Source of the DNA: an uncultured Gemmatimonadota bacterium
GTDB taxonomy: Bacteria; GCA-2686955
Direction: 5' to 3'
NCBI GenBank assembly: GCA_964490075.1
Contig: CAZBBK010000008.1
Span: 1 to 64,000, forward strand
Length of the DNA stretch: 64,000 nucleotides
Position numbers and translations under genes: made by a program. The notes under the pieces are model-generated. The model was not told the DNA's origin. It saw only the letters and a list, made by a program, of their open reading frames with translations, and did no database searches. Position 1 is the first letter of the stretch. Each line of letters begins with the position of its first letter. Below, piece by piece: positions 42,502 through 63,906 of the stretch.

Positions 42502-42536
42502 TGGATCCTCTCGGAGCTCGCAAGGCTCAACGGCGT

Positions 42537-46671: not shown

Positions 46672-48300
46672 CTAGTCCTCCTGTCCATTGAGCGGATCCA
46701 GCCTGAGATCCTGCGTTCGCTCCGTCTGCCCTTTCATGATCAGAGCGTTGCCCACCAGCTCGTGGATCCCCGTGACCTTGACCCCTGGCGCCCAGTAGTC
46801 ACAGACCGTGGTCAGGGTCGCTCGATCGATGGCGCACATGGCTGCGAGGTAATTCACTCCGAACTCGTCACGAACGTGCCGCACGGCATTACCGCGGGGA
46901 AGTCCGCCGCGCAACCGCATCTCCATGTTCTCATCGGTTCCCAGACCGGCGCCTCCACCGCAGCAGAACGTCTTTTCACGAATGGTGTTCTCGGGCATCT
47001 CCGTGAAGTTGTTGCAGACGTTCCTCAAGACGAATCTCGGTTCTTCGAAGATCCCCATGGCCCGGGCCGGGTTGCAGGAATCGTGGAAAGTCGCATGAAT
47101 ATGGTCGTTCTTGGACGGGTCGAGCTTCAGCTTGTCGTGCTTGATGAGGTCTGCCGTGAACTCGGTGATATGGATCATCTTGGTCGACCGCGCGTGCTCG
47201 AAGCGCGTGCCAGTGATCGGCGATGTCGGCACTTCGAGGCAGTCCACCGGGCCGTTCATGGTGCCCATGTATTGATTCAGCACGCGCCACATGTGGCCGC
47301 ACTCTCCGCCCAGGATCCACTTCACTCCCAAGCGTTGGGCCTCTGCGTAGATCTTGGCGTTTAGCTTCTTCATGGTATCGTGCGAGGTGAAGAGGCCGAA
47401 GTTCCCCCCGTCCGACGCGTAGCTGCTAAATGTGTAGTTCAGACCGAGCTCGTGGAAGAGCATCATGTAGCCCATGCAGGTGAAAGTGCCGGGCTCGGCC
47501 AGGAAGTCCCCCGACGGGGTCACGAAAAGGATGTCCGCGCCGACCTTGTTGATCGGAATGTCCACGGCGATTCCGGTGATTTCCTCGATATCCTCGGCGA
47601 AGAACTCCAGCGTGTCTTTCAGCCCGTGGGGCTGAATGCCCAAATGGTTGCCCGTGCGCGAGCAGTTAGCCACCGGCTCCAGCACCCAGTTGACGTTGAG
47701 TCCCAGGAGGTGGAGCAGCTCGCGCGCCAGCATCGTGATCTCGGCGGTATCGATACCGTAAGGACAAAACACCGAGCAGCGACGACATTCGGTGCATTGG
47801 TAGTAGTAGTAGAACCACTCCTTGATGACGTCGACGGTCAGCTCCCGACCGCCGGCCATTCGCCCGAGGATCCGTCCGGCCTTGGTGAACTCCTTGCGAT
47901 AGATCGATCGAAGCAGCTCGGCGCGGAGCACGGGCATGTTCTTGGGATCGCCGCCGCCGATGTAGAAATGGCACTTGTCTGCGCACGCTCCGCAGCGCAC
48001 GCAGATGTCCATGAAGAGCCTGAAGGAGCGATACTTCTGCAGTCGTTCCGCGATGCCGTCGATGATGATTTGTTTCCAGTTCTCTGGAAGCTGCCAGTCG
48101 TCATCGGTCGGTGCCCACTGTCGGGGATTGGCCATTCCCAGATAGGAGAGATGCTTCGGCTTGGCGGGATAGATGAAGCTCCCCGGCCGCATGTCGACCG
48201 GAGTGTCCATCCAGTCGGTGGGAGGCGGCTTCGCGTCGATATTGGACAACGTATCGTGGTCGTAGAACGCCATCTCGTCGGGCTGATGATCGGGCGCCAT
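46672..48300 (-). CDS. dsrK: DsrK, Fe-S/CCG catalytic subunit
   Basis: CVRCGACADKC, CTECRRCSVFCP, GECGHMWR, HDSCN, CCGGG. Confidence 0.96.
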   Translation of the reverse strand: MAPDHQPDEMAFYDHDTLSNIDAKPPPTDWMDTPVDMRPGSFIYPAKPKHLSYLGMANPRQWAPTDDDWQLPENWKQIIIDGIAERLQKYRSFRLFMDICVRCGACADKCHFYIGGGDPKNMPVLRAELLRSIYRKEFTKAGRILGRMAGGRELTVDVIKEWFYYYYQCTECRRCSVFCPYGIDTAEITMLARELLHLLGLNVNWVLEPVANCSRTGNHLGIQPHGLKDTLEFFAEDIEEITGIAVDIPINKVGADILFVTPSGDFLAEPGTFTCMGYMMLFHELGLNYTFSSYASDGGNFGLFTSHDTMKKLNAKIYAEAQRLGVKWILGGECGHMWRVLNQYMGTMNGPVDCLEVPTSPITGTRFEHARSTKMIHITEFTADLIKHDKLKLDPSKNDHIHATFHDSCNPARAMGIFEEPRFVLRNVCNNFTEMPENTIREKTFCCGGGAGLGTDENMEMRLRGGLPRGNAVRHVRDEFGVNYLAAMCAIDRATLTTVCDYWAPGVKVTGIHELVGNALIMKGQTERTQDLRLDPLNGQED

Positions 48301-48303
48301 GGC

Positions 48304-49296
48304 CTACTCCTTCTCGACCGGGATGCCGGCTGCCTTCATCTTCTCGCGGAACTCGTCCTCGTACTTCTCGTACGGGTAGACCTCGAAGGGAGGGTTCCAG
48401 GGATTGATGTGGCGAACCATGCGGTTGTTGTTGGCGAGATTGCGTGTCGGGCTGAGGAAGACGCCGCCCGCGTGCATGAGCTTGCTGAAGGGGAAGTAGA
48501 TCAGGAGCACGCAAACCAACAGAAGATGAGCGTAGAAGAGCCAGTGGATCTGCGCATCCGTGGCAGGGCTGAATGCCACCAGCGCCATGATCGTGGTCTT
48601 GATCGAAGCGACGTCGGTCTTGGCGAAATGCCTGAGCAAGATGCCGGTCACGGCGATCGCTCCGATCAGCAGCAACGGAAAGTAGTCCGCTGCGAGAGAA
48701 AGGTAGCGAAGTTGGGGCGACGCGAGTCGTCGGACCAGCAAGTAGAGCGTCGCGAGGAGCAGTCCAATGCCGGTCATCAGTAGCCCAGGCACCCCGATCT
48801 GCAGGAATCCATCCAGCCCGCTCACCCACCCCACGAATGCCGGCACCGGCTCTGTGAAGAACCTCAAGTGGCGGATGATCACCAGGGCGAAGCACCAATG
48901 GAAGACCATTGACGCCGCCCACAGTATCTTGTCCGAGGCGTGGATGACGTTGGCTCGTGCGTCGACCGTAGTCGCGGTATTTCGGAACAACGACCGGAAG
49001 CAGAGGATTTCCAGCGCCATCCTGCCAATTACACCGAGTGTCGTCTGGGGGTTGTCGAGAGGGCTGGACTTGATCCAGGGAAGAGAGCGTTGCTGGCCGC
49101 AGGTCGTGGGAATCCGGAAGGGCACCGGACTCCTGGCCCAGACGACGACCCGCCAAATGAAGCCGACCACGAAGACCGCAAATGCGAGATAGGGCAGCGC
49201 CGCTCCAACAAAGAGGCGCAGGCCGAGAGGCTCGACGCCGACGTACGCCGCGAGCAGCAATGCCACGACGACGATCAAAGGTACTGTGAGTTTCAT
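48304..49296 (-). CDS. dsrM: DsrM, NarI-like cytochrome b
   Basis: PVPFRIPTTCGQQ, FRSLFRN, FHW, RHLRFF, YFPFSKLMHAGG, NNNRMVRHINPWN. Confidence 0.95.
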   Translation of the reverse strand: MKLTVPLIVVVALLLAAYVGVEPLGLRLFVGAALPYLAFAVFVVGFIWRVVVWARSPVPFRIPTTCGQQRSLPWIKSSPLDNPQTTLGVIGRMALEILCFRSLFRNTATTVDARANVIHASDKILWAASMVFHWCFALVIIRHLRFFTEPVPAFVGWVSGLDGFLQIGVPGLLMTGIGLLLATLYLLVRRLASPQLRYLSLAADYFPLLLIGAIAVTGILLRHFAKTDVASIKTTIMALVAFSPATDAQIHWLFYAHLLLVCVLLIYFPFSKLMHAGGVFLSPTRNLANNNRMVRHINPWNPPFEVYPYEKYEDEFREKMKAAGIPVEKE

Positions 49297-49820
49297 TCGC
49301 CACCACCTTTCCGCGGTTGGAGGTCGCATTCCGCGTCTTGCCACGCAATCTGGTTCATGCGGAGGATCGTCGCTACCTGGCCTCTGTTCTCGCGGATCCT
49401 GATATCGGCGATTCTGCGTTGTTGAGCCGAGTAGTGGTCAAAGGCGCGCAGTGCCAGACGATCGACTCGATCTTCTAGCTCCCGCATGGCGTCCGACCGC
49501 AAGCAGTCGCTCAGCTGAGCTCGCAGCAAGTCCTTCACACGAAACACGAAAGAGATCGCCGTGGAGGGCGCCAGCTCCTGTACGGAGATCAGCCGTACGA
49601 TTTGGTCGAGGCTCTGGTCGGTCGAATCGTCGCCGTCTCCGGCGAGCAACCCATCGAGGAGGCGACGCAACTCGACGGCGATGGTGTGGCCGACAGGGTT
49701 CGCGAAAGGGTCGGTGTTGCCGCGTAGGAAGCGCTGAGAATCGGTCGCATAGATGTCGATCGTCGAATCGATCCAGGCCTCCAACAAGACCTGGCGCCGC
49801 CTTGCATCGATTGTCTTCAC
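49293..49820 (-). CDS. dsrT: DsrT (RsbRD N-terminal domain)
   Basis: DPFANPVGHTI, VQELAPSTAISFVFRVK, LALRAFDHY; directly upstream of dsrM. Confidence 0.88.
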   Translation of the reverse strand: MKTIDARRRQVLLEAWIDSTIDIYATDSQRFLRGNTDPFANPVGHTIAVELRRLLDGLLAGDGDDSTDQSLDQIVRLISVQELAPSTAISFVFRVKDLLRAQLSDCLRSDAMRELEDRVDRLALRAFDHYSAQQRRIADIRIRENRGQVATILRMNQIAWQDAECDLQPRKGGGE

Positions 49821-50025: not shown

Positions 50026-50343
50026 TCAGACGCAACCGGTGGGCTTCGGAAGCCCGGCGACTTTGCACGCGCCCTTCGCGGGGCCAGACGGGAACAGGTC
50101 GTAGATCTCCTTCAGTTTGAAGCCGGTTGCCTTACACAGCTTGCGGATCATCGGCGCGACGCCGTACTCCATGTAGTATTCGCGCAAGTAGTTGACGACC
50201 TTCCAGTGATCGTCGGTCATGTCCTGCACGCCCTCGGTGTCCGCCAGTGCATTCGCCACGGCGTCATTCCAGCGATCGGGTTCTTGGATGAATCCGTCTT
50301 CGTCGACTTCGATTGTCGTGTCGCCAACTTGAAACTCGGCCAC
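50026..50343 (-). CDS. dsrC: DsrC sulfur carrier
   Basis: VDEDGF; LFPSGPAKGACKVAGLPKPTGCV with both C-terminal cysteines; AAGGAG RBS before GTG 50343. Confidence 0.97.
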   Translation of the reverse strand: MAEFQVGDTTIEVDEDGFIQEPDRWNDAVANALADTEGVQDMTDDHWKVVNYLREYYMEYGVAPMIRKLCKATGFKLKEIYDLFPSGPAKGACKVAGLPKPTGCV

Positions 50344-50359
50344 GAGTCTTCTCCTTCGC

Positions 50360-50947
50360 TCACAGTGAGCTATCGTTGCTAGGTTTGGGGTCGATTTCGA
50401 TCGCAAGGTCATCTCCGCCGCCCGTTCGGCGGCCGAGGGCCTTTTCGATCTCCTTTACGAAAGAAGGTTCGGGAGAGAAACCAAGGGACTTGGCCCTCTC
50501 GAAACTGATTATTGCCGCATCGATCTCGTTCAGAGCGTTGAGGCCGACAGCCAGGTGGTAGTGACCACCAGCGTTCTGGTCGTCGAGCTCCACCACGCGT
50601 CGGAAGCACTCGACCATCTGCTCCGCTTCACTCAAATAGAGGTGGCAGAGACCTTGATTGTAGTGGCCCTGAACGCCACCCGGCTGACACTCGACGGCTT
50701 TCTTGTTCGCTTCGAGGCTGGCGGCGAAATCCCAGCGCGAGAAGAGCACACCCCCGAGATCGATCCACGCCCGGTACATCGTTGGATCGAGATCGAGCGC
50801 TCGGCGCAGCGAGCATTCGGCCGCGGCGAGGTCGCCCTGCTTGCGCTGCAGGGTGCCCAATCGGTAGTGCGCCATGGGCGAATCCGGTTGCGATTCGACC
50901 GCCTGTTTCAGCTCGTTCAGCCCTTGGGCCGGGGTGTTGTCAGGCAT
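50360..50947 (-). CDS. TPR protein within the dsr operon
   Basis: About four TPR units (AHYRLG, AWIDLG, GHYNQG, GHYHLA). Confidence 0.85.
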   Translation of the reverse strand: MPDNTPAQGLNELKQAVESQPDSPMAHYRLGTLQRKQGDLAAAECSLRRALDLDPTMYRAWIDLGGVLFSRWDFAASLEANKKAVECQPGGVQGHYNQGLCHLYLSEAEQMVECFRRVVELDDQNAGGHYHLAVGLNALNEIDAAIISFERAKSLGFSPEPSFVKEIEKALGRRTGGGDDLAIEIDPKPSNDSSL

Positions 50948-51407
50948 CTCCGTGAGCTCCTCTCCGTAGGACCGCCTCGATCGCGTTGATGAGGGCCGAT
51001 CCGAGACGCTTCTGGCATCGGTCCACGACGACCCGGAGCGCCCTCTGCAGGTCTGGTCGCAGATCCTCGTCGGTCGCCAGGCGGACCAGGTCCGGGGACA
51101 CGGAAACGAGCAGGTCGGGGCGCTCTCGGGCGATCGCAAGCACGACAGCGGGGGCGGTCAGCGAGTTGGTGCCCGATTCGTCGTTCATGGCCCATACCAG
51201 GCGACGCACCAGGCGCTGGGTCAGCCTGGGATGATGGCGGCCGCCGATCGCCATGCCGTGGGCGGCGATCGCTCTCAGATCCCCGTCGCTGTGATAAGTG
51301 AGGGCGAGCACGTGCCGCAGAGCACGCGGGTCGTGCTCGATCAAACGCTCGAGCGCATCGAGCTCGCCACCCTCGGCCGCCCTTCGGACCTCTTGCCGCA
51401 GGTTCAT
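50940..51407 (-). CDS. HEAT-like helical protein, DVU0298-like
   Basis: RRLVWAMNDESG motif recalled from the DVU0298 family; ATG overlaps the dsrN stop. Confidence 0.6.
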   Translation of the reverse strand: MNLRQEVRRAAEGGELDALERLIEHDPRALRHVLALTYHSDGDLRAIAAHGMAIGGRHHPRLTQRLVRRLVWAMNDESGTNSLTAPAVVLAIARERPDLLVSVSPDLVRLATDEDLRPDLQRALRVVVDRCQKRLGSALINAIEAVLRRGAHGDA

Positions 51408-52864
51408 GGCCGAGCTCCATTCGCGGCCCGCACCACGCCGCCGGCCCACTCTGGTGTGCCCAACGCATGCAGGTGTGTGTAGCTTGCCACTACTTTTGCG
51501 ACCTGAATGCCGTCGCGCCCCGCGCCGATGCCGGTGCCGCGCTCCATGGCCATCACACTGGCCACTTCGGCATCGCCGTGTCGCACGCGCGAGTAGTGGA
51601 ATTCGTGGCCGCGCAGCGCGGTTCCTTCCCGAAGAAAGGGATTGGCGCGGTCGATCTGGGCTCGAACGTAACCGTGGCCTTGCGGACGTGGCTGCTGCTC
51701 GACCTCGATCGGCAACGCGCCCACCATCGGGAAGGTCGTTCCGGATTGCTGCAACGAGCGCGCCAGGTACATCAGACCGCCACATTCGGCCCATACCGGG
51801 AGTCCCTGGTCGATCGCCTTTGCGAGCGACTTCCGCAGCGCGGCATTGTCCGAGATCCGTTTAGCGTGAACCTCTGGAAACCCGCCTCCCGCGTAGAGAG
51901 CGTCGATCGCGGGGAGCCGCGAGTCGTCGAGAGGCGAAACCGGCACCAGCTCGGCGCCATGCCTCTCGAGCGCCTCCAGGTTCTCGGGGTAGTAGAAAGA
52001 GAACGCGGGATCGCGCAGCACTCCGATGCGCGGCACGCCGGCGATTGCCGGTTCAGCGGTCACGGATTCCAACGGCTCGAGAGCCGGCGTGTCCTTCGCC
52101 AGGGTCAGCAGACCGTTCAGGTCCACATGCTCTTCGGCCAGCTCGCCCAGGGCTTCGAGCGCCGCCCTCTTCTCCGGGTGCTCGAACGCCGTGACCAGGC
52201 CCAAGTAGCGATTCGGCAGCCGTTGTTCGGTCAACCGGGGGATCGCACCGAGCACCGGTAGACCGGTTTCCAGCGCGATCGCCTCTTTGATCACACGTTC
52301 CTGGCGCGCCGTTCCTACGCGATTGAGGATGACACCCGCCAGCTGCAAATCAGGGTCCATTACGCGACAACCGAGCACCTGCGCGGCGACCGTCCGGGTC
52401 ACCTTGGTCACGTCGATCACCAACACGACGGGCGTAGCCGTGAGCTTCGCCAGCTGGGCCGTCGAATGTGATCCCCTGGCGTCGAGTCCGTCGTAGAGTC
52501 CGCGATTGCCTTCGATGATCGCTACGCCAGAGTGTGACGCCGCGCCGCGCAGCGATTCCAGGATGGCGGAGTTGGGCATGAGAAAGGTGTCGAGGTTCCT
52601 TCCCGGGCGCCCGGCCGCCTCACCCAACCAGGCCGCGTCGATGAAATCCGGCCCCTTCTTGAACGGTGCCACCTCCACGCCCCTTGCGCGGAGACCCGCA
52701 ACGACGCCTAGCGAGACCAGGCTCTTCCCGGTATCTCCGGCCATCCCGGCGAGAACCACACGGGCCAGGGGCAAGGCGCGCTGCTGCGCCTCCACCGCCG
52801 CATCGTTCGTCGATGCGGCGTCGCACGGTAGCGACCGTCGACCTTGATCGTTGCGCCTGGCCAT
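51404..52864 (-). CDS. dsrN: DsrN siroheme amidase (CbiA/CobB family)
   Basis: GDTGKS, FKKGPDFID, EGNRGLYDG, AFSFYYPEN, AECGGLMYL, GHEFHYS; inside the dsr cluster. Confidence 0.9.
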   Translation of the reverse strand: MARRNDQGRRSLPCDAASTNDAAVEAQQRALPLARVVLAGMAGDTGKSLVSLGVVAGLRARGVEVAPFKKGPDFIDAAWLGEAAGRPGRNLDTFLMPNSAILESLRGAASHSGVAIIEGNRGLYDGLDARGSHSTAQLAKLTATPVVLVIDVTKVTRTVAAQVLGCRVMDPDLQLAGVILNRVGTARQERVIKEAIALETGLPVLGAIPRLTEQRLPNRYLGLVTAFEHPEKRAALEALGELAEEHVDLNGLLTLAKDTPALEPLESVTAEPAIAGVPRIGVLRDPAFSFYYPENLEALERHGAELVPVSPLDDSRLPAIDALYAGGGFPEVHAKRISDNAALRKSLAKAIDQGLPVWAECGGLMYLARSLQQSGTTFPMVGALPIEVEQQPRPQGHGYVRAQIDRANPFLREGTALRGHEFHYSRVRHGDAEVASVMAMERGTGIGAGRDGIQVAKVVASYTHLHALGTPEWAGGVVRAANGARP

Positions 52865-52901: not shown

Positions 52902-54659
52902 CTACTTCATATCCAGGAATCCGCAGGGACATTCGTCCGCGCACTTGTTGCAGCCGTCGCAAGATCCCAGGTCGATCGTGTAGAAGCTTCCCGGGCGCAG
53001 GTCTTCCGGCTTGACCTTCTTGAAGCAGCCCGGCGTGCAGTACATCCAGCAACGCTCGCAGCCGAAGCACTCGCCACAGGAGAAGCAACGTGCCACCTCG
53101 GCTTCGAATCCGGTCTGGCCGATGCCCAGGTCGATCTCCCGTTGTGGCTCGGCGAGTCTCACCTCGGGCTCCAGTACCTCCCGCTCGGCCCGTGGACTCG
53201 CCTCGTAGAAGTCCATCTTGATGCGCTCCGGCCCGACCGACGTTCCGTTGCTACTGGTGGCCGGATCTTCGCCACGCAACGCAGCATGCATGCTGAGCGC
53301 AGCGCTTCGACCCTGGCCGATCGCGGCCGTCGCCAGGCCGAGATTGATGTTGTCGCCACCCGACCAGACGCCCTCGAGCTCGGTGCGTCCCCATTCGTCC
53401 GCGTTCAGCCAGCCGACATCGGTGAATGCGCCGAGCTGCTTGCAGTCCGGTGCCTGGCTGACCGCGGTGATCACGGTATCGGCCTCGATCTCGGTGATCT
53501 TGCCTTCGATGGGAACCGGTCGCCGGCGTCCAGAGGCGTCCGGCTCGCCCAGCTCCATGTGCTGGATGCGAACCTTCTCGATCGAACCGTCGTCGCCGCG
53601 CACCACCTCCGCAGGTGCGGCCAGGAACTCGATTCGGATTTGTTCCTCGAGCGCCTCTTCCACCTCGCGGTCGATCGCCGGCATCTCTTCGCGCGTCCTA
53701 CGGTAGAGGATCATCACGTCGCTGCCGTCGGCGCCGGAGTCGCTCATGCGTCGCGCTACCCGCGCCGCGTCGATTCCGGTCTGGAAGATGACCCGCAGCG
53801 CCACGCGGGCGGCGTCTACGGCGGTGTCGCCGCCGCCGACCACGACCACCTTCTCGCCTACGGGCGGAGGGTTGCCGGTGGCGACCTGACGCAGGAAATC
53901 TGTGCCCGTATATATATTGGGCCCATCCTCACCGGGGACTCCTAGCGTCTTGCCGGTGTGGGCGCCGATGGCAACGAATACCGCGTCGTAGTCGCGCCGC
54001 AGGTCGTCCAGCGTGGTGTCCTTGCCTATCGCCACGCCGTAGCGGATCTCGACGCCCAGATCGGTGATACGCTCGACCTCTTTGTCGATGACCTCGCGAG
54101 GCAGCCGATACTCCGGAATACCGTAGCGCAGCATCCCGCCCGATTCGGGCAGAGCCTCGAACACGGTCACAGAGTATCCGCGCCGCGCCAGCTGATAGGC
54201 GCAGGACAATCCCGCCGGGCCGGCGCCGACCACCGCGATCTTCTCCTCGAAGGGCCCTCCGGCATCGAGCTTCGGCAACGCCAGATCGTGTCCCAATCCC
54301 CAATCCCCGATATGCCTTTCGACTCCGTTGATCGAGACCGCGCCGTCCTTGGCACTTCGGTTGCACTTCTCTTCGCACGGGTGGGGGCAGACGCGCCCCA
54401 TGACGGCGGGGAAGGGATTGGTATCCACCTCGATCTGCCAGGCGCGATCGAGCGCCGCATCGAGGTCGATTCCCAGCTTCTCGCGCTGGGCGACGACGGT
54501 CAGCCACCCGCGAATGTCGTTCCCGCTGGGGCAGGTGTCCATGCAGGGCGCGAGCTTGGTTAGCTGCTGGGGCCGCAGAGCCGAGCTCTTGGTTCCGGCC
54601 GCGCCCCGTCCGGTGGTTCGCAGCGGCTTCTTCTTCTTGCCCTTTTTCAGGAGGCCCAT
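52902..54659 (-). CDS. dsrL: DsrL iron-sulfur flavoprotein, YRR-containing (DsrL-2-like)
   Basis: CMDTCP, GRVCPHPCE, GAGPAG, GGGDTAVD, LYRR, C-terminal CFSCGECFGCERC and CDGCNKCADECPCG. Confidence 0.92.
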   Translation of the reverse strand: MGLLKKGKKKKPLRTTGRGAAGTKSSALRPQQLTKLAPCMDTCPSGNDIRGWLTVVAQREKLGIDLDAALDRAWQIEVDTNPFPAVMGRVCPHPCEEKCNRSAKDGAVSINGVERHIGDWGLGHDLALPKLDAGGPFEEKIAVVGAGPAGLSCAYQLARRGYSVTVFEALPESGGMLRYGIPEYRLPREVIDKEVERITDLGVEIRYGVAIGKDTTLDDLRRDYDAVFVAIGAHTGKTLGVPGEDGPNIYTGTDFLRQVATGNPPPVGEKVVVVGGGDTAVDAARVALRVIFQTGIDAARVARRMSDSGADGSDVMILYRRTREEMPAIDREVEEALEEQIRIEFLAAPAEVVRGDDGSIEKVRIQHMELGEPDASGRRRPVPIEGKITEIEADTVITAVSQAPDCKQLGAFTDVGWLNADEWGRTELEGVWSGGDNINLGLATAAIGQGRSAALSMHAALRGEDPATSSNGTSVGPERIKMDFYEASPRAEREVLEPEVRLAEPQREIDLGIGQTGFEAEVARCFSCGECFGCERCWMYCTPGCFKKVKPEDLRPGSFYTIDLGSCDGCNKCADECPCGFLDMK

Positions 54660-54878: not shown

Positions 54879-55121
54879 TCATTCGCTGTCGGGCGACAGC
54901 ACGATGTAGCTTCCGCCGACGTACGAGTAGGTGCACCGACCGGAGTCGATGAGTTGGCGGATCGCCTTCTTGCAGAGCTTCTTATCGCAGCTATCGCCGC
55001 CGAACTGCTCGATCATGCCCTTGGTCAGGTCCATGGCCTTGAGATTCCTCTTGCCGTGGTACTCCTTGACCATTGCGTACATCGCCTCGGCGACGGTGTC
55101 GACGGTCACCTCTTCACTCAT
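54879..55121 (-). CDS. dsrD: DsrD
   Basis: 80-aa winged-helix-like protein right after dsrB; KKAIRQLIDSGRCTYSYVGGSYI. Confidence 0.85.
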   Translation of the reverse strand: MSEEVTVDTVAEAMYAMVKEYHGKRNLKAMDLTKGMIEQFGGDSCDKKLCKKAIRQLIDSGRCTYSYVGGSYIVLSPDSE

Positions 55122-55133
55122 CGTTCTACTCCT

Positions 55134-56210
55134 CTAACCTTGTCGAAGCTGGGCGGAACGTTTGTAGGTCTCGCCCGCGTGTGTGAAGTCGTCGATGTGG
55201 TACTTGGTGAATTCGATGTCGGCGATCTCGAAGAACTTCGGCCAGCCGATCCGCTCGATCCACTCGCCCATGCGCTCAAACTTGCGAGCGTTGGCCGCGT
55301 AGATATCGACCAGGTTCTTGACCGCCGCGACCACCTCGGGCCAGCGTGGCGGATTGTTCGGTAGGTACGGAATCGCCAGCTTGGAGAACATCGGCTCGTG
55401 GCGAGCATTGCTGACCTTGCCACCTACCCAGATCGACACACCGTCCATCTCTGGATCGTTGAGCGTCATCGAGGGACAAACCGTGTAGCAGTTGGCGCAG
55501 AACATGCACTGCTCTTCGATGACCTCGACCGAATCGTGGCCGTCGACCGTCTTCGGGCGCACGGCACCGGTGGGGCACGAAGCGACCGTGGACGGGACCT
55601 CGCACTGGGTCTTGATCGTCGAGTGATCGATGACCGGAGCCCGGCGGTGGACGCCGAGAATCGCGATGTCCGAGCAGTGGACCGCTCCGCACATGTTCAA
55701 GCAGCAGGCGTAGGCGATGCGCAGCTTCGCTGGCAGATCCATGTTCACGAAGTGCCCAAAGAGCTCGTCCATGACCGCCTTCACCACACCGGATGCGTCC
55801 GATGCAGCGGAGTGGCAGTGGACCCAGCCCTGTGTATGCACCACATTCGTGATCGACGCGCCGGTGCCTCCGACCGGGTAGCCCTCTTGGCCCAGACGCT
55901 CGATCAAGGGCTCGATTTTGCTCTCGTCGGAGAGCAGGAACTCCACGTTGTTGCGGCTGGTCCATCGCAGATGGCCACCCGAGAACTCGTCGGCCAGATC
56001 CGCGAAAAGGCGCAGCGTGTGAACACTGGCGATTCGCGCCGTGGCGGCACGCACCGAGTAGAGCTTGTCTCCGGACTCGGAGATGTGCACCAGAACGCCG
56101 GGCTTCGGGTTCTCGTGTCGCTTCCACTTGCCGTAGTTCTCTTTGATGATCGGCGGCAGGAACTTCTCATAGTGAGGAGGGCCGATGTCCGTCTTGCGCT
56201 CGGTAGCCAT
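55134..56210 (-). CDS. dsrB: Dissimilatory sulfite reductase beta subunit
   Basis: [49 protein letters not shown]. Confidence 0.98.
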
Positions 56211-57410
56211 CTAGTTGTCCTCCTCTTCTTCGTCCTCTTCTTCGAAGAAAATGTAGGGGTTGGTTCGGGGGTGGATGACCATTTCGGGAGCGGGATCGAG
56301 GCCGATCTGCTCGAGGAAGTTGCCCAATCCGACGCGCTGGATGAACTCGCCGACGCGCTCGCGATTGTTGCCGTACTCACCCCAAATGTCCCAGATCGCT
56401 TCGGTGAGCTCCTTGAGGTCCTCGTAGGGCGGCTCCATCTCGAGGAAGGGAACCAGCACCGAGCAGAGCAGAGCTCCGCCGATGATCGGCGCCTTCCCAC
56501 CCAGCAGAACCGTTGCTCCGCGATCGTCTCCCGGCGACAGCGCCTTGTGCAACACGTTGATGCAATGCATGCACTTGACGCAGTTCGAGTCGTCGATCGA
56601 GAGCTCGCTGCCGTTCCAGCTCATGCATCGCGACGGGCAGCGCGAGGTGACGTGTGCGTGGATGTCGATCTCGCCCGCGCTGGCGTAGTTCCGGACCTCG
56701 TCCTGATCGATCTTGATTCCGTCACGCCAGGTGCCAATGATCGACATGTCCGAGCGCGCGATGGAGGCCACACAGTCATTGGGGCAGCCGGCGAACTTGA
56801 ACTTGTACTTGTAGGGAAAAGCGGGACGGTGCAGCTCGTCCTGGAACTCGTTGGTGATGTCGTGGGTCACCCCCATCGTGTCGTAGCATGCCCACTCGCA
56901 ACGAGCCTGGCCGCAGCAGCAGCTCGGCGTCCTCATGTCGGAGCCGGAACCGCCCAGGTCGAACCCGGCCTCGGTCAGCTCGCTGAAGATCGGCTCCAGC
57001 GCTTCGGTCTTGGCACCCAGGAAGATGATGTCACCGGTCGATCCGTGCATGTTGGTGATGCCGGATCCGTGCTTCTCCCAGATGTCGCAGAGCTTGCGAA
57101 TCGCATCAGAGGTGTAGAACCACCCGGAGGGCTGGTTGATTCGAATGGTGTGGAACTGGGAGCACTCCGGAAACTCCTCGGGCAGGTCGCTGTAGCGCCC
57201 GATGACCCCACCGCCGTAGCCCATGACGCCGACCAGGCCACCGTGCTTCCAGTGCCCGATCTTGTCTTTGTACGAGCGCTCGAGAAGCCCCAAGAGGTCG
57301 TTCGTCGCCGCGTTGTCGGCGGCGCTCTTCTTGAATTCTTTCACGAAGCTGGGCCACGGTCCCGCTTCGAGCTCATCCAGCAGCGGGGTGTCCCTCTTGA
57401 TGTCCGTCAT
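56211..57410 (-). CDS. dsrA: Dissimilatory sulfite reductase alpha subunit
   Basis: [43 protein letters not shown]5C (CCGQARC) and [15 protein letters not shown]. Confidence 0.98.
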
Positions 57411-57652
57411 GGCAGCTCCTCATCGGTAGCCATGTGATGCCTTCAGGTATGAGCGATTCGCTCGCCCCCGATCGATTGCGGGTTCGCCCGTGAACGCCCT
57501 GTGCTCTGCCCGCTCCCATGGAACGCGGCGTGCGCCATCCGCACCGATCTCGAAGGACTCGGGCGGCGGACGAAATCCGATGTCGATGGACATAAGCCAG
57601 CGATCGCAACGGCTTTGTACAGTGGGAATCTAAGGGGTTTCGCGGACCACGG

Positions 57653-57695
57653 GTCAAACGGATAATCTCGATGGGCCCGATAAGATGTGTTGATC
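57653..57695 (-). promoter_or_regulatory. Putative LysR-dependent promoter of dsrA (T-N11-A box, second box, TTGAC -35)
   Basis: Minus strand GATCAACACATCTTAT-CGGGCCC-ATCGAGATTATCCGTTTGAC; aligns without gaps to 58836-58878. Confidence 0.6.
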
Positions 57696-57828
57696 GACGT
57701 TCGTTGGCGGTAGCAAATCGGCTAAACTCAGCGCAGAACCATAGCGTGCGAGCGGGACCGTTGTGCCGGGCGCGCGCCCCTCGTTCTCCCGTATTCGCGG
57801 CAACCGCCGCGGGCAAGGACGCTCACTC

Positions 57829-58773
57829 GTGGAGCTTCATCAGCTTAGGTGCTTCGTAGCGGTGGCGGAGGAGGGCGGGTTCAACCGCGCCAGCCACCGG
57901 CTGCGGATCACGCAGCCCGCCGTCTCCTACCAGGTCAAGCAGCTCGAGATGGAGCTCGGACAGTCGCTGTTCAACAGGGGACCGCGAGGAGTGACGACCA
58001 CCGAGGCGGGGCGTGTGCTCTTGCAGCACGCGTTGCAGGTCTTCGAGTCGATTCGCAGAACCAGGCACGCCTTGCAGCGGCTTTCGGGCGGCGTCGCCGG
58101 CGAGGTGCGAATCGGCACCGTCAACAGCGTCGGCATGTACGTGCTGCCGGATGTGTTACGCCAGATTCGCGTGAAGTACCCGAGCATTCGTCCCACGATC
58201 CTGTTCCGGAACTCCCACGCGGTGATGGATGCCCTGCACTCCAACCAGATCGAGATGGCCATCGTGGCCAATCCCTCTCCCGACCGGCGCTATCGGTTCG
58301 AGGCTTTGATCGAGGAGCCCGTCTCCCTTGTTTGCGGTCGCGCGCATCCCTTTTTCGGGCGCCTCGAAGTGGACCCGGAGGAGCTCAGGCAGGTCGATTT
58401 CGTCTCCTTGACCGATGATACTCCGACGGGCAGACTGGCTCGAGCGCAGCTGGAACAGCTTGGCGTCACCCGAGCGCCCGTGGTGCTCACGGAGAATATC
58501 GAGACGATCAAGCGGATGGTGGAAGTCGGTTTGGGCGTGGCGCTTCTGCCCAACATGGTGACCAGCGAGGAGGTCGCCTGCGACCTGCGTCTCTCAGGCC
58601 AGCTCGCGCGCATCGCCATCCCCATGAAGCTGGAGCGCCGGATCGTGCTGGTGACCTGGAAGCAGTTCGAGCTCAGCCCCGCGGCCAGCGCGTTCATCGA
58701 GCTGCTGCGTGCCGAGTGCAAGGACTGGGCCGATTGTCTCGATGACGGCAGTCGAACGAAAACACCATCTTGA
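57829..58773 (+). CDS. LysR-type transcriptional regulator
   Basis: ELHQLRCFVAVAEEGGFNRASHRLRITQPAVSYQVKQLE.ELG..LFNR HTH; ETIKRMVEVGLGVALLP; GTG 57829. Confidence 0.95.
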   Translation: MELHQLRCFVAVAEEGGFNRASHRLRITQPAVSYQVKQLEMELGQSLFNRGPRGVTTTEAGRVLLQHALQVFESIRRTRHALQRLSGGVAGEVRIGTVNSVGMYVLPDVLRQIRVKYPSIRPTILFRNSHAVMDALHSNQIEMAIVANPSPDRRYRFEALIEEPVSLVCGRAHPFFGRLEVDPEELRQVDFVSLTDDTPTGRLARAQLEQLGVTRAPVVLTENIETIKRMVEVGLGVALLPNMVTSEEVACDLRLSGQLARIAIPMKLERRIVLVTWKQFELSPAASAFIELLRAECKDWADCLDDGSRTKTPS

Positions 58774-58835
58774 GCAGCCACTGCGCTGGAGGGTCATCGG
58801 GCTGCAAAGGCCTCTGTATCTGTCTCTGCGCACGC

Positions 58836-58878
58836 GATCAGCGGACTCTATAAGGGGAATCGAAAGTTTCGTTTTGAC
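58836..58878 (+). promoter_or_regulatory. Putative LysR-dependent promoter of aprB (T-N11-A box, second box, TTGAC -35)
   Basis: GATCAGCGGACTCTAT-AAGGGGA-ATCGAAAGTTTCGTTTTGAC; weak -10 CATCCT 17 nt after TTGACG. Confidence 0.6.
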
Positions 58879-59012
58879 GCGGACTTCCGAGACCTGCATC
58901 CTATTGGGCGATACCGCTGCGGCTCGGAGCCAATTTCGCACGCATTTGACGGCGTGATCTTTCGAGCGTTCCGAAGTAGTTCGTCAGCGCGATAACCTCG
59001 TGGAGGCTTTTT

Positions 59013-59450
59013 ATGCCAAGCTTCGTACGTCCGGACAAGTGCGACGGATGCAAGGCGCTCGATAAGACCGCCTGCCAGCACATCTGCCCGAATGACCTGA
59101 TGGTGCTCGACAAGGACTCGATGAAGGCGTTCAACCAAGATCCTTCTCAGTGCTGGGAGTGCTACAGCTGCGTGAAGATCTGCCCGCAGGACGCCGTCGA
59201 CGTGCGCGGGTACGCGGACTTCGTTCCGATGGGGGCGTCCGTGGTTCCGATGCGTTCCACCGACTCCATCATGTGGACACTGAAGTTCCGCAACGGGACC
59301 ATCAAGCGGTTCAAGTTCCCGATCCGCTCCACCCCGGAGGGCTCGGCGGAGCCTTCGGGCGGTTGGTCGAGCCCCGCCGATCTCGACAGCCCCACCCTCT
59401 TCTCCGAGCCCGAATCGCTGGGGCTCGACGAAGTGTGGACCAAGAACTAA
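59013..59450 (+). CDS. aprB: APS reductase beta subunit
   Basis: MPSFV..DKCDGCK..DKTACQHICPNDLM, CWECYSCVKICP, RGYADFVP, KRFKFPIR. Confidence 0.98.
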   Translation: MPSFVRPDKCDGCKALDKTACQHICPNDLMVLDKDSMKAFNQDPSQCWECYSCVKICPQDAVDVRGYADFVPMGASVVPMRSTDSIMWTLKFRNGTIKRFKFPIRSTPEGSAEPSGGWSSPADLDSPTLFSEPESLGLDEVWTKN

Positions 59451-59468: not shown

Positions 59469-61346
59469 ATGCCTAGCTTCACGACTGTCGAGGTAGAGAC
59501 CGATCTGCTCATCCTCGGAGGCGGGATGGCGTCCTGCGGTGCTGCCGTCGAAGCAGCCCACTGGGCGAAGCAAAACGACCTGAAGGTCACTCTGGTGGAC
59601 AAGGCCGCGATGGATCGCTCCGGCGCCGTCGCCATGGGCCTTTCGGCCATCAACCAGTACGTCGGTCTGAAGGACGGCGAGAACACCATGAAGGACTATG
59701 TGGACTACGTCCGCAACGACCTCATGGGTGTCTGCCGCGAGGATCTGGTCGCGAGTATCGCGCGCCATGTCGACTCATCGGTCCACCTCTTCGAGAAGTG
59801 GGGTCTGCCGATCTGGAAAGACAAAGACGGCGGATACGTTCACGAGGGTCGCTGGCAGCTGATGATCAACGGTGAGTCCTACAAGGTCATCGTTGCCGAA
59901 GCCGCCAAGAACGCGCTTGGAAATGACAATATCTACGAGCGCGTCTTCATTACCGAGCCACTCATGGATGGCGACCGTTGCGTAGGTGCCGTCGGTTTCT
60001 CGGTGCGCGAAAACAAGTTCTATGTGTTCAAGGCGCGCGCGACGCTGGCGGCCATGGGCGGAGCGGTCGGCGTATTCCGTCCGCGCTCCCAGGGTGAGGG
60101 TGCGGGTCGCGCATGGTACCCGCCTTTCAACTCCGGCGCTTCGGCCTACTTCACGATCCAAGCTGGCGCGGAAATGACCTGCCAGGAAGTGCGTTTCATT
60201 CCGGTGCGCTTCAAGGACGCTTACGGGCCCGTGGGCGCGTGGTTCCTGCTCTTCAAGTCGACTGCTACCAACGCGCTCGGCGAGGTGTACATGCAGACCC
60301 GCCGTCCGGAGCTCGAGAACTGGCAGCCCTACGGCAAGGTCAAGCCGGTCCCGGCGAACCTGCGCAACTATCTCATGATGCTCGATGTGTTGGAAGGCAA
60401 GGGCCCGATCTACATGCAGACGGCCGACGCCATCAAGCGCATCGCGGAGAGCGAGGACGATCCCAAGAAGGCCAAGAAGAAGCTCAAGGAGCTCGAGGCC
60501 GAGGCATGGGAGGATTTCCTCGACATGACGATCTCGCAGGCCATCCTCTGGGCCGCGACCAACATCCAGCCCGAGGTGTCGCCCTCCGAGATCGCCGCCG
60601 CCGAGCCGTACTTCATCGGCTCGCACTCCGGCGCTTCGGGTGCCTGGGTGAGCGGTCCGAAGGACCTCGCGCCGCCCGAGTACTTCTGGGGCTACGAGAA
60701 CATGACGACGATTACCGGCCTGTTCGCGGCGGGTGACGCGTCGGGCGCCTCGTCTCACAAGTTCTCGTCCGGTTCCCACGCCGAGGGACGCATCGCCGGC
60801 AAAGCGGCGATTCGCTTCCTCGTCAACGAGAACCCGGATCTCGGCAACGTCTCGGCCGATCAGATCGAGGGCCTGAAGGCTCGTGCGATCAAGCCGATGG
60901 TCGTCTACGAGGAAAACAAGGACAAGACCACCCAGACCGACGTCAATCCTCACTACATCCTGGCCAAGAGCTACATGCAGCGTCTGCAGAAGCTCATGGA
61001 CGAGTATGCCGGAGGCGTCGTCGCGCAGTTCTGCACCTCCGAGAAGAACCTCGAGAAGGCGCTCGAGCTGCTGACCTTCCTGAAGGAGGACTCGGAGAAC
61101 CTGGCCGCCAAGGATCTTCACGAGCTGATGCGGTGCTGGGAAAACGTCCACAGGACCTACCAGGGCGAAGCCCACGTTCGGGCGATGTTGTTCCGCGAAG
61201 AGACCCGCTGGCCGGGCTACTACTTCCGGTCCGACACTCCGAAGATGGACAACGAGAACTGGAATGTCTTCGTCAACTGCACCTTCGATGCAGAGACCAA
61301 CGAATGGAGCTTCAAGAAGGTGCCGATCCAGACCATTCTCTCGTAA
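59469..61346 (+). CDS. aprA: APS reductase alpha subunit
   Basis: RSGAVAMGLSAIN, WQLMINGESYK, RFKDAYGPVGAWFL, HKFSSGSHAEGR, REETRWPGYY. Confidence 0.98.
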   Translation: MPSFTTVEVETDLLILGGGMASCGAAVEAAHWAKQNDLKVTLVDKAAMDRSGAVAMGLSAINQYVGLKDGENTMKDYVDYVRNDLMGVCREDLVASIARHVDSSVHLFEKWGLPIWKDKDGGYVHEGRWQLMINGESYKVIVAEAAKNALGNDNIYERVFITEPLMDGDRCVGAVGFSVRENKFYVFKARATLAAMGGAVGVFRPRSQGEGAGRAWYPPFNSGASAYFTIQAGAEMTCQEVRFIPVRFKDAYGPVGAWFLLFKSTATNALGEVYMQTRRPELENWQPYGKVKPVPANLRNYLMMLDVLEGKGPIYMQTADAIKRIAESEDDPKKAKKKLKELEAEAWEDFLDMTISQAILWAATNIQPEVSPSEIAAAEPYFIGSHSGASGAWVSGPKDLAPPEYFWGYENMTTITGLFAAGDASGASSHKFSSGSHAEGRIAGKAAIRFLVNENPDLGNVSADQIEGLKARAIKPMVVYEENKDKTTQTDVNPHYILAKSYMQRLQKLMDEYAGGVVAQFCTSEKNLEKALELLTFLKEDSENLAAKDLHELMRCWENVHRTYQGEAHVRAMLFREETRWPGYYFRSDTPKMDNENWNVFVNCTFDAETNEWSFKKVPIQTILS

Positions 61347-61454: not shown

Positions 61455-61730
61455 ATGACCGACAAGAGCCCATCATATAGCTGTCCCCATTGCGCCTCGA
61501 GCCTGTACTCCGTCGTGCTCCCGGAGGGAACGGGATGGGAGACGGGAGCTCAGTGGGTCTGCTTCAACGACGAGTGCAGCTACTTTCAGGAAGGGTGGGA
61601 CTGGATGTGGGAGAACTACCGAGCCAAGGCCTCCTATCGGTATCGGATCATCAATCCGCAGACCGGCTCGGCTTCCCCGCTTCCCGTCTGGTCCACCGAT
61701 GCCCTTCGCAATTTCATAGTCGAACAGTAA
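61455..61730 (+). CDS. Small Cys/Trp-rich putative zinc-finger protein
   Basis: CPHC...CFNDEC ligands; GWDWMWENY...SYRYR...PLPVWS. Confidence 0.7.
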   Translation: MTDKSPSYSCPHCASSLYSVVLPEGTGWETGAQWVCFNDECSYFQEGWDWMWENYRAKASYRYRIINPQTGSASPLPVWSTDALRNFIVEQ

Positions 61731-61784
61731 ACGGACGGTTCGCGCCGAGCGACGGGTGGAGAACCGCCAGGATTGAGAAGATCC

Positions 61785-62585
61785 GTGAACAACCGACCCG
61801 ACAATCCGAAGAGCCCTTTGCCCCAGAGTTTGGAGGGGCGGCGCCAGCTCGAAGCACAAGACGACTTCTGCTTCGGGTGCCATGAGAAGCTGGATTGCTT
61901 CAAGCGCTGCTGCTCCGATGTCAACATCTTCCTGACTCCGCTCGATGTCCTGCGGCTGGCGCGAAGGTCGGAGATGTCGACGACGGACTTCCTCGACCGA
62001 CACACACTGACGCCCATTAGCAAGGACCTTCAGCTTCCGGTCGTGGTTCTGCGCATGATCGACGAGCAAGGAACGGCCTGTCCCTTCCTCGGCGACGAGG
62101 GTTGCACGGTGTACGAAGACCGCCCCTGGTCTTGTCGCATGTACCCTGTTGGGCTGGCGCTGCCGCCGGCGCGCGCCGGACTCGATCCCGAACCGATGTA
62201 CTTCCTCTTCGAAGACAGTCACTGCGACGGCGGAACACAGCCCCAGAAATGGACGGTCGAAAGCTGGACCGAGAACCAGGGGATTCCGGAGCGGGAACGG
62301 ATCGAGGAGGGCTTCCGTAAGCTCGTCTCGCATCCGTGGTTCATCGGTGGCAGACAGCTCGATCCTCGGCGCATGCAGATGTTCCACATGGCGTGCTACG
62401 ACCTGGATGGCTTTCGCAGATTCGTATTCGACAGCACTTTCCTCGAGAGATTCGAGCTGGACCAAGCGCTCGTATCACAGCTTCGAGACGACGACGAGGC
62501 GTTGCTGCGCTTCGCTTTCCGCTGGCTTCGATACGCACTTTTCGCTGAACCCACAATGAACCCGCACAAGAACGCGGAAACCTAG
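61785..62585 (+). CDS. YkgJ-family cysteine-cluster (CxxCxxCC-like) protein
   Basis: FGCHEKLDCFKRCC, LTPLDVLRL, CPFLGDEGCTVYEDRPWSCRMYP. Confidence 0.85.
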   Translation: MNNRPDNPKSPLPQSLEGRRQLEAQDDFCFGCHEKLDCFKRCCSDVNIFLTPLDVLRLARRSEMSTTDFLDRHTLTPISKDLQLPVVVLRMIDEQGTACPFLGDEGCTVYEDRPWSCRMYPVGLALPPARAGLDPEPMYFLFEDSHCDGGTQPQKWTVESWTENQGIPERERIEEGFRKLVSHPWFIGGRQLDPRRMQMFHMACYDLDGFRRFVFDSTFLERFELDQALVSQLRDDDEALLRFAFRWLRYALFAEPTMNPHKNAET

Positions 62586-62649: not shown

Positions 62650-63906
62650 GTGACCACACCGGCATCACGACCCATCCTGACGATCGGAGCAGGGATCGCT
62701 GGCGTGACCACTGCTCTCGAGGCCGCAGAAGCAGGGCACGATGTGATTCTGGTCGAACGCGAGCCGGCGATCGGCGGGCGGGTCGTCAGGAACCACCAGT
62801 ACTTCCCAAAGCTCTGTCCCCCGCTCTGCGGGATGGAGATCAACACCGGTCGTCTGGATCGCAACGAGCGCATCCGGCTGCTGACGAGCAGCGAGGTGAC
62901 CAGTGCCGAGCGCATTGATGAAGGCTGGACGGTCGAGATCCGGCAGGCGCCGGAGCATGTGAATGGCCGTTGCACGGCATGCGGAGATTGCACCAAAGTT
63001 TGTCCGGCCACCACTCCCGATCGCTTCAACTACGCGATGAGCGAAGGACCGGCGATTCGACCTCTCCACACCGAGGCCTATCCGGCTCGCTACACGCTCG
63101 ATAGAGCCGCATGCCCGGCGGATTGCCGTGCCTGTGTCGATGCCTGCAAGTACGACGCCATCGACCTCGAAGCGCAGCCGACGGACCAGACGATCGACGT
63201 CGGTGCCGTTGTCTTGGCGACGGGATGGGATCCCTATCCACTGGAGAAGCTGAGCGAGTTGGGTGGCGGCGAGCTGGCGGACGTGATCGCCAATGTGCAC
63301 CTGGAGAGAATGGTTGCGACCTCGGGACCGTCGGAGGGGAAGATCCTGCGTCCGTCGAACGGAGAGCCCCCCAAGCGAGTGGCGTTCGTCCAATGCGCCG
63401 GCTCCCGCGACACCAACCACCTGCCCTACTGCTCCGCGGTCTGTTGTCTCGCCTCGTACAAGCAGGCGACCTACGTGCGCGACCAGCTCCCCGATGCGGA
63501 GGTGGCGATCTACTACATCGATCGCCGCGCCCCGGGCAGAAACGAGGAGATGCTGAAGCAGGCGGAGGAACTGGAAAGCGTCGATCTGGTCAAAGGCAAA
63601 GTGGGAAGGATCGAGGCCGGCGACGGAGGTGTGCTGAAGCTGCGCGTGGAGGACATCGACTCCGGCCGGCTGCTGGAAGCGGAGGCCGATCTGGTGGTTT
63701 TGGCTACCGGCATGGTGCCGCGCGTCGACCAGGACGGAGCGCCCTTCGGCGCTCAGCTGGATGACTACGGCTTCGGACTGGATGACAAGGACGCCAAGGT
63801 CTTCGTGGCGGGGGTCTCGCGCAGACCCGAAGATGTCGCCGCCTCGGTGCGGAACGCAACAGGCACGGCCGCGAAGGCGATCGTTGCAGCGTTGAGGAGT
63901 GCATGA
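62650..63906 (+). CDS. qmoA: QmoA (HdrA-like flavoprotein)
   Basis: GAGIAG.T.ALEAAEAG, YFPKLCPPLCG, FVQCAGSRD..HLPYCSAVCC; downstream of aprBA. Confidence 0.92.
   Translation: MTTPASRPILTIGAGIAGVTTALEAAEAGHDVILVEREPAIGGRVVRNHQYFPKLCPPLCGMEINTGRLDRNERIRLLTSSEVTSAERIDEGWTVEIRQAPEHVNGRCTACGDCTKVCPATTPDRFNYAMSEGPAIRPLHTEAYPARYTLDRAACPADCRACVDACKYDAIDLEAQPTDQTIDVGAVVLATGWDPYPLEKLSELGGGELADVIANVHLERMVATSGPSEGKILRPSNGEPPKRVAFVQCAGSRDTNHLPYCSAVCCLASYKQATYVRDQLPDAEVAIYYIDRRAPGRNEEMLKQAEELESVDLVKGKVGRIEAGDGGVLKLRVEDIDSGRLLEAEADLVVLATGMVPRVDQDGAPFGAQLDDYGFGLDDKDAKVFVAGVSRRPEDVAASVRNATGTAAKAIVAALRSA

Follow-up and report, generated by a model that had tools for sequence, protein, structure and literature searches.

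Does a single LysR-type regulator govern both halves of the dissimilatory sulfur pathway in an uncultured bacterium of the Gemmatimonadota? The question arises from a 64,000-nucleotide stretch of its genome (positions 1 to 64,000 of contig CAZBBK010000008.1, assembly GCA_964490075.1), referred to here as the window, in which a lysR gene sits exactly between the heads of a dsr cluster and an apr cluster that jointly hold every step of the dissimilatory pathway, from sat to dsrMK..P. Classical activators among transcriptional regulators of the LysR type (LTTRs), of the BenM/CatM, CbbR, and CbnR type, use a T-N11-A recognition site together with activation sites next to the -35, and an earlier reading of this DNA (the original prediction) proposed a 43-bp operator/promoter element of that kind, shared by dsrA and aprB, with the LysR as a candidate master switch for sulfate respiration. 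The present analysis indicates that this LysR, with operators before dsrA and aprB, would probably co-regulate the whole dissimilatory sulfur pathway, a reading to which we assign a probability of about 0.72. What stands of the proposal is a conserved, genome-unique element, laid out like a LysR operator, heading both clusters, whereas a dedicated sulfate-respiration sensor is disfavored by orthologues of the protein that adjoin hdr operons.

The two 43-mers align without gaps, are identical at 27 of 43 positions, and form the best 43-mer match between both intergenic regions (coordinates of all features are collected in Table 1); the original prediction had given both sequences, their positions, and the count correctly. 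Taken alone, this degree of identity is only marginal, being reached by 8 of 300 dinucleotide-preserving shuffles, with a shuffle mean of 24.2. The shared element would be a weak case on the window alone, and it is the comparison across genomes that makes it a strong one. Four components make up each copy. The first is a recognition box of the T-N11-A kind, ATMA-N7-YTAT, with its center some 30 bp upstream of the -35; it is followed by a spacer of 7-8 bp that is variable in sequence, by a second, A/T-cored box (ATCGAnAnTTnCnn) of about 14 bp, reaching the T run ahead of TTGAC, and by the TTGAC -35 hexamer directly after this second box. The substructure described before (ATCA-N7-YTAT, N7, ATCGA, and TTTGAC) is present at both sites. 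An ATCGA box abutting the -35 had also been proposed, and in this case the second box itself is conserved and extends over about 14 bp to the T run, but 10 bases separate ATCGA from TTGAC. The T and A of box 1 are invariant at 8/8 sites, with two to four of the four outer pairs being symmetric. If the predicted -35 is taken as the reference, box 1 is centered near -66 and box 2 near -44, a separation of two helical turns. Reads of four DNA runs, all from one study, were also mapped, and no variant was detected within the intergenic regions.

The source genome (G000; 5.7 Mb, 68% GC, 136 contigs, 95% complete) belongs to a lineage that is very sparsely sampled, with three further genomes in the family (G001-G003) and one more in the class (G004). 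A strict pattern, ATCA-N7-YTAT-N7-ATCNANA-N7-TTTGAC, fits five sites in three organisms: the window, the family member G001, and L049, a metagenome contig of 1952 bp and 57% GC in which dsrA (76% identity) is divergent from the N-terminus of a LysR (65% identity). Among the 27 positions shared by the window pair, 23 are kept in front of G001 aprB, 23 in front of G001 dsrA, and 21 in front of L049 dsrA, values that were each reached by 0/300 shuffles. As a control, the upstream regions of dsrA and aprB in G004, which belongs to the same class and is without the orthologue, remain at chance, with 14-15/27. In G001, with aprBA downstream of the LysR gene, conservation in the intergenic alignment with the window sets in exactly at the start of the box, and dsrA, which lies on a separate contig, has the box upstream as well. 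The intergenic region of L049 otherwise does not align with that of the window, yet the box is found in the same register. Moreover, the spacers vary freely among the sites, and the remaining sequence upstream of dsrA hardly aligns. Conserved boxes together with free spacers are a pattern that points to protein contacts and not to shared descent alone.

The element is also unique in the source genome. With up to two mismatches allowed, a scan of G001-G004 with the strict pattern returns two sites only, those before aprB and dsrA in G001; in G002 and G003, dsrA, aprA, and the LysR were not found, and G004 carries dsrA (70% identity) and aprA (71%) without a LysR orthologue. A weight matrix of the five sites, run over the 5.7-Mb source genome, places only the dsrA and aprB sites at 51-58 bits, the next best match being at 18.8 bits. 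Both the conservation of the motif in homologous loci and its genome-wide scan had been named as checks in the original prediction.

The strongest argument comes from where the box occurs in relation to the regulator. Across the five genomes that carry an orthologue, a relaxed pattern, ATMA-N7-YTAT-N21/22-TTTGAC, was matched twice each in G000, G001, and G552 and once each in G640 and G484; seven of these eight matches adjoin lysR or precede dsrA or aprB, and the reversed pattern used as control gave none. In the five genomes without the orthologue (G002, G003, G004, G233, and G044), there were 0 matches, and three of these genomes carry dsrA at 69-72% identity. Because it is present in 5/5 genomes with the orthologue and absent in 5/5 without, the box goes with the regulator and not with dsr/apr as such. 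This co-occurrence supports the box as the operator of this LysR subfamily, and the distribution of the relaxed pattern across genomes likewise supports the reading of TTGAC as a -35.

Three of these genomes (G552, G640, and G484) come from another phylum, that of G233, and their LysR orthologues are each 52% identical to the window protein; dsrA was not found in any of the three. In these loci, lysR follows hypF, hypD, and a hypE-like gene and is itself followed by hdrC-like and hdrB-like genes, a gene for a 1492-aa HdrA/GltD-type fusion, genes for the small and large subunits of a [NiFe]-hydrogenase, and a maturation protease gene. Directly after the LysR stop codon come ATMA-N7-YTAT, 22 nt with an A/T-cored second box, and TTTGAC. 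These members of the subfamily share with the window box 1, an A/T-cored second box, and the TTTGAC next to the regulator gene but differ in their target, an Hdr/Mvh-type hydrogenase operon, in the distance between box 1 and TTTGAC (22 nt versus 21), and in their near-consensus core promoters. The regulator is divergent from dsrA in the window and in L049 and stands directly upstream of aprB (window and G001) or of the hdr operon (G552, G640, and G484). As a separate observation, the fusion gene, which stands behind the same LysR-type box, between the hdrB-like and the [NiFe]-hydrogenase genes, is a single open reading frame (ORF) in L133 (G552:C16, 9469-13947), its 1492 aa comprising HdrA-like, GltD/DsrL-like (Fer4_20 and Pyr_redox_2), and ferredoxin domains.

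The regulator itself is an ordinary LTTR in its domains, both of which are above the Pfam cut-offs (PF00126 HTH_1, 82 bits; PF03466 LysR_substrate, 151 bits). Its start was set at the GTG at 57829, and not at 57763, because in the alignment all orthologues begin MELHQL there. At E<=1e-40, the subfamily is single-copy in the source genome. The G001 protein is 68% identical overall, with a single difference from the window protein within residues 1-40, the DNA-reading head. The protein stays below every named NCBIfam LTTR cut-off: the best match, the selenium-metabolism-associated LysR NF040786, scores 167.4 bits where 250 are required, and the values are 80.4 against 402 for the CysB family (NF009327), which comprises assimilatory sulfur LTTRs, 99.5 against 329 for OxyR (NF008361), and 142 against 450 for the CbbR family. 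The nearest solved structures are those of a Rubisco-operon regulator (5y2v, E 1e-26), OxyR, and NtcB. A protein search retrieved 272 proteins at E<=1e-40, with identities of 53-70% among the 120 listed; the few named members come from metagenome-assembled genomes labeled Planctomycetota, Myxococcota, Deltaproteobacteria, Proteobacteria, and Deferrimicrobium. The LysR therefore belongs to a large, unnamed LTTR subfamily that is uncharacterized. In an alignment of 12 sequences of this subfamily, Cys8 and Cys169 are invariant, and conservation at Cys251 and Cys303 is 90% or more.

Downstream of the boxes, the predicted core promoters of the two clusters differ from those of the hdr operons. In 3/3 dsrA upstream regions, TAGATT or TAGATA is found 18-19 nt after TTGACn (N18-TAGATA in L049), and the aprB promoter of G001 reads TTGACC-N18-CAACCT; at the hdr sites (3/3), TTGACT-N17 is followed by TATCCT, TAACTT, or TATAAT, close to the consensus. 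Judged from their sequence, the weak core promoters of dsrA and aprB fit a dependence on an activator, whereas at the near-consensus hdr promoters repression without effector would be equally possible. Also, position 6 of the element is A at 3/3 dsrA sites and G at 2/2 aprB sites. Seen from the lysR strand, this A gives TTGAT, a hint of an overlapping lysR promoter and of autoregulation.

What is shown are the gene identities and the element, with its conservation, its uniqueness in the genome, and its co-occurrence with the regulator; the mechanism proposed here is inferred, from binding and the sign of regulation to the start sites of transcription and the effector. According to excerpts of PMC11739112, the general LTTR scheme comprises a recognition site with T-N11-A and an activation site. 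In the usual form of that scheme, a LysR tetramer would occupy the recognition site at about -66 and the activation site at about -44, and a change of effector state would let RNA polymerase fire from the two weak core promoters. The dsrA promoter would then drive dsrAB-(80 aa)-dsrL-dsrN-TPR-dsrC-dsrMK..P, and the aprB promoter would drive aprBA-x-x-qmoABC-sat. As for the signal, a sensor specific for sulfite or APS is less likely than a general redox or energy signal, or one of thiol type that Hdr-related energy modules would share, because orthologues with the same box front an hdr-hydrogenase operon. The effector would therefore probably not be specific to sulfate respiration, and a thiol or redox signal is a reasonable guess from the four conserved cysteines. 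A wider proposal, in which the subfamily would be a thiol/redox master switch for Hdr-type anaerobic energy modules with one operator grammar (dsr/apr-qmo-sat here and hdrCBA-[NiFe] elsewhere), is tentative, and we regard it with more doubt than confidence.

Other readings of the same element have to be weighed against co-regulation by an activating LysR. The protein could instead bind mainly as a repressor or autoregulator, switching both clusters off, for instance when conditions are oxic. In favor of this, the second box runs into the -35, and near-consensus core promoters such as the hdr-type TTGACT-N17-TATAAT should need no activator; the A at position 6 of the dsrA sites would fit the overlapping lysR promoter, and excerpts of PMC11739112 report that LTTRs without effector repress leaky promoters. 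However, the core promoters of dsrA and aprB are weak, with a 19-nt spacer in the former and CATCCT as the -10 in the latter, boxes near -66 and -44 are placed as in activated LTTR promoters, and inspection by eye found no conserved -10 for lysR. Regulation chiefly by repression is thus considered unlikely.

On the other hand, the element could be bound by a different factor, such as a response regulator on direct ATC repeats or a global anaerobic regulator, the LysR being a bystander. ATCA and ATCGA indeed repeat 22 bp apart, that is, two helical turns, at the five dsr/apr sites, and the last gene of the apr-qmo-sat cluster encodes an HdrD-like protein with a fused receiver domain. Such a factor would hardly explain why the box stays beside the LysR orthologue in another phylum despite a different target operon and is missing in genomes without the orthologue; moreover, the hdr sites lack the ATC of the second box, and neither intergenic region of the window contains a Rex/HcpR-type box, TGTGA-N6-TCACA, the best match having 7/12 specified bases. 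We consider this reading quite improbable. Even less can be said for a mere strong-promoter architecture, made up of a -35 and an upstream A/T-rich element and lacking a dedicated regulator, which we find scarcely credible: 8/8 sites end in TTGAC and are A/T-rich against a genome of 68% GC, but no other site of the genome exceeds 18.8 bits, so that no rRNA, tRNA, or ribosomal-protein promoter carries the element, the conservation is position-specific with free spacers, and the element co-occurs with one regulator gene.

Co-regulation by the LysR has several points standing against it as well. The dyad of box 1 is imperfect at the dsr/apr sites, where two to three of the four outer pairs are symmetric; a strict sigma-70 scan of 57350-59100 called 0 promoters; and the 19-nt spacer of the dsrA promoter is long. 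The matrix and the patterns were built from the sites that they score and are circular at those sites, independence being limited to the background across the genome, the hdr sites, and the LysR-free genomes. The dsr/apr link is seen in only three organisms, two of them from one family, and such kin are not independent. Outside these, no orthologue was found at E<=1e-70 in 33 other dsrA-bearing genomes sampled, and in the 27 of those 33 whose loci were examined, dsrA has no LysR within 1.5 kb. Because of these two results, the link between dsr/apr and the LysR is taken as lineage-specific. Finally, the lysR contig of G001, as assembled, has an isocitrate dehydrogenase gene (idh), and not dsrA, opposite lysR. 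The last 92 bp of the G001 dsrA contig (end of L094) match the region 167-258 bp upstream of lysR at 97.8%, which suggests that G001 dsrA may also adjoin lysR; the overlap is probably explained by an assembly break or by a chimeric join with the idh side. A 19-bp inverted repeat is also present upstream of G001 lysR (L013, G001:C177, 2875-3045).

Among the genomes sampled, the orthologue is rare. It was found in 0/396 genomes outside the family in a sample of 400 genomes of relatives, although 33 of these 396 have dsrA, in 0/39 genomes of the phylum of G061, and in 0/4, 0/1, 0/2, 0/11, and 0/13 genomes of the phyla of G408, G049, G044, G431, and G022, respectively; in the phylum of G233, 3/285 genomes (G552, G640, and G484) have it. 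A search of genome contigs for related loci returned only LysRs of about 30% identity and one 27-residue match at 63%. From metagenome contigs, 80 loci were kept, of which only L049 was informative, the query patterns being generic; L030, L041, and L069, with 48-59% identity over the LysR N-terminus, have neither dsrA nor the box. No related locus was found in viral contigs. In the sample behind the mapped DNA reads, another organism is represented by a 2358-bp contig in which the starts of both dsrA and aprB find a match (57420/59013 joint). The divergent dsrA/aprB arrangement thus occurs in further members of the community, the sequence between both starts not being covered by the match.

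How does this arrangement compare with known systems? To our knowledge, little is known about the control of dissimilatory sulfite and sulfate metabolism outside Desulfovibrio, and we know of nothing for uncultured lineages with dsrAB and dsrL. The original prediction knew of no dedicated LysR regulon for dsr and apr, and none turned up in the full-text literature, subscription journals and supplementary files being outside the search. As in classical LTTR activators, the protein has the same two domains, one target is divergent, a T-N11-A box of 15 bp lies upstream of the -35 by about 30 bp, and two helical turns downstream of it comes a further box, which is weaker. In contrast to those systems, the targets are the dissimilatory sulfite reductase and APS reductase clusters, and one regulator gene is flanked by two operators for two clusters. 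The LysR is, then, a well-known kind of regulator with a predicted new regulon.

For Desulfovibrio, Rex is given in a passage of PMC7531388, citing Christensen 2015, as an NADH-sensing repressor of sat in D. vulgaris, and excerpts of PMC545781 present HcpR, of the CRP/FNR family, as a regulator predicted for sat and apsAB and not for dsrAB. The system described here is like these in that an operator in the promoter region would control dissimilatory sulfate-reduction genes. However, it involves another protein family, the operator of Rex and HcpR being TTGTGA-N6-TCACAA, and dsr and apr share one element here, whereas dsrAB lies outside the predicted HcpR regulon. In G004, the region upstream of aprB (L098, G004:C44, about 630-700) is A/T-rich and contains TTGACA...GATACA followed by a CRP/Rex-like box, ATGTGAATTTTTTCACGT (9/12). 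This suggests that G004, which is without this LysR, may have a different regulator for the same apr operon.

Regarding the genes around the element (Table 1), dsrA, dsrB, aprB, and aprA all exceed their NCBIfam cut-offs, and Pfam and NCBIfam searches upheld the earlier calls of these genes and of the LysR. The 80-aa ORF at the usual position of dsrD gave no Pfam or NCBIfam match and no meaningful match among solved structures.

Table 1. Positions of the operator/promoter elements, their boxes and predicted core promoters, and the surrounding genes. Coordinates are those of contig C8, of which the window covers the first 64,000 nucleotides.
Feature	Position	Strand	Remarks
dsrA-side operator/promoter element	57653-57695	-	Matrix 51.3 bits; conserved before dsrA in G001 and L049
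dsrA-side box 1, ATCAACACATCTTAT	57694-57680	-	
dsrA-side box 2, ATCGAGATTATCCG	57672-57659	-	Element then ends in TTTGAC
Predicted dsrA core promoter	57627-57657	-	TTGACC (57657-57652), 19-nt spacer, TAGATT (57632-57627)
aprB-side operator/promoter element	58836-58878	+	Matrix 58.1 bits; conserved before aprB in G001
aprB-side box 1, ATCAGCGGACTCTAT	58837-58851	+	
aprB-side box 2, ATCGAAAGTTTCGT	58859-58872	+	Element then ends in TTTGAC
Predicted aprB core promoter	58874-58902	+	TTGACG, 17-nt spacer, CATCCT (58897-58902)
LysR-type transcriptional regulator gene	57829-58773	+	314 aa, GTG start; Pfam HTH_1 and LysR_substrate
dsrA, heading the left-hand cluster	56211-57410	-	TIGR02064, 577.5 bits (cut-off 392.85)
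dsrB	55134-56210	-	TIGR02066, 500.3 bits
80-aa ORF at usual dsrD position	54879-55121	-	GC3 0.86; "DsrD-like" from position and size only
dsrL-like, NAD(P)-binding iron-sulfur flavoprotein	52902-54659	-	NF009410, 556 bits; Fer4_20 and Pyr_redox_2
dsrN-like, a,c-diamide synthase (amidase)	51404-52864	-	TIGR00379, 433 bits
TPR protein in dsr cluster	50360-51139	-	Pfam TPR
dsrC	50026-50412	-	Pfam DsrC
dsrM-like	48304-49344	-	Pfam Nitrate_red_gam
dsrK-like	46672-48300	-	Pfam Fer4 and CCG
dsrP-like, far end of dsr cluster	44336-45505	-	Pfam NrfD
aprB, heading the right-hand cluster	59013-59450	+	TIGR02060, 214 bits
aprA	59469-61346	+	TIGR02061, 900 bits
Small Cys-rich ORF between aprA and qmoA-like gene	61455-61730	+	Weak Ogr/Delta-type zinc-finger match
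Second small Cys-rich ORF between aprA and qmoA-like gene	61773-62585	+	CxxCxxCC-domain protein
qmoA-like gene	62650-63906	+	
qmoB	63903-66158	+	Beyond the window
Fer4 protein (qmoC-like)	66168-67355	+	Beyond the window
sat	67352-68617	+	Beyond the window

The gene content bears on the direction in which the pathway would run. A dsrL is present in the dsr cluster, and DsrH was not found in the source genome by a search that did find matches in control genomes; the Pfam DsrD model gave no match in the source genome, but it gave none in any control genome either. According to a part of PMC6338057, gene content of this sort alone does not fix the direction of the pathway, and the reductive direction implied by the term sulfate respiration is a tentative reading from gene content only. 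A facultative lifestyle is plausible, because the genome has two COX1 homologues (heme-copper oxidases).

Some further genes at the outer ends of the two clusters were recorded. Downstream of the dsrP-like gene, a CoA-disulfide-reductase-like flavoprotein is fused to a rhodanese domain (40774-42540, minus strand). At the end of the apr-qmo-sat array (C8 69986-71749), an HdrD/DsrK-like protein (Fer4 and CCG) is fused to a response-regulator receiver domain, an unusual combination that could couple phosphorelay signaling to a thiol/disulfide enzyme. A gene for a protein with a macro domain and a 223-aa ORF that matches no family lie between sat and this fusion gene.

For the organism, co-regulation by the LysR amounts to a testable regulon, with one regulator, two defined operators, and two promoters covering sat to dsrMK..P, and if true it would explain a unit-wise switching of the pathway in a possibly facultative bacterium. 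The operator grammar is the first for a widespread, uncharacterized LTTR subfamily and would be usable to predict the regulon of its members in metagenomes. Also, the link to hdr-hydrogenase operons suggests a signal common to several Hdr-type energy modules. Moreover, if the tentative proposal of a thiol/redox master switch were true, a dissimilatory sulfur pathway would for the first time have a transcriptional on/off switch dedicated to the whole of it, and this LysR would at the same time be a general regulator of anaerobic energy metabolism.

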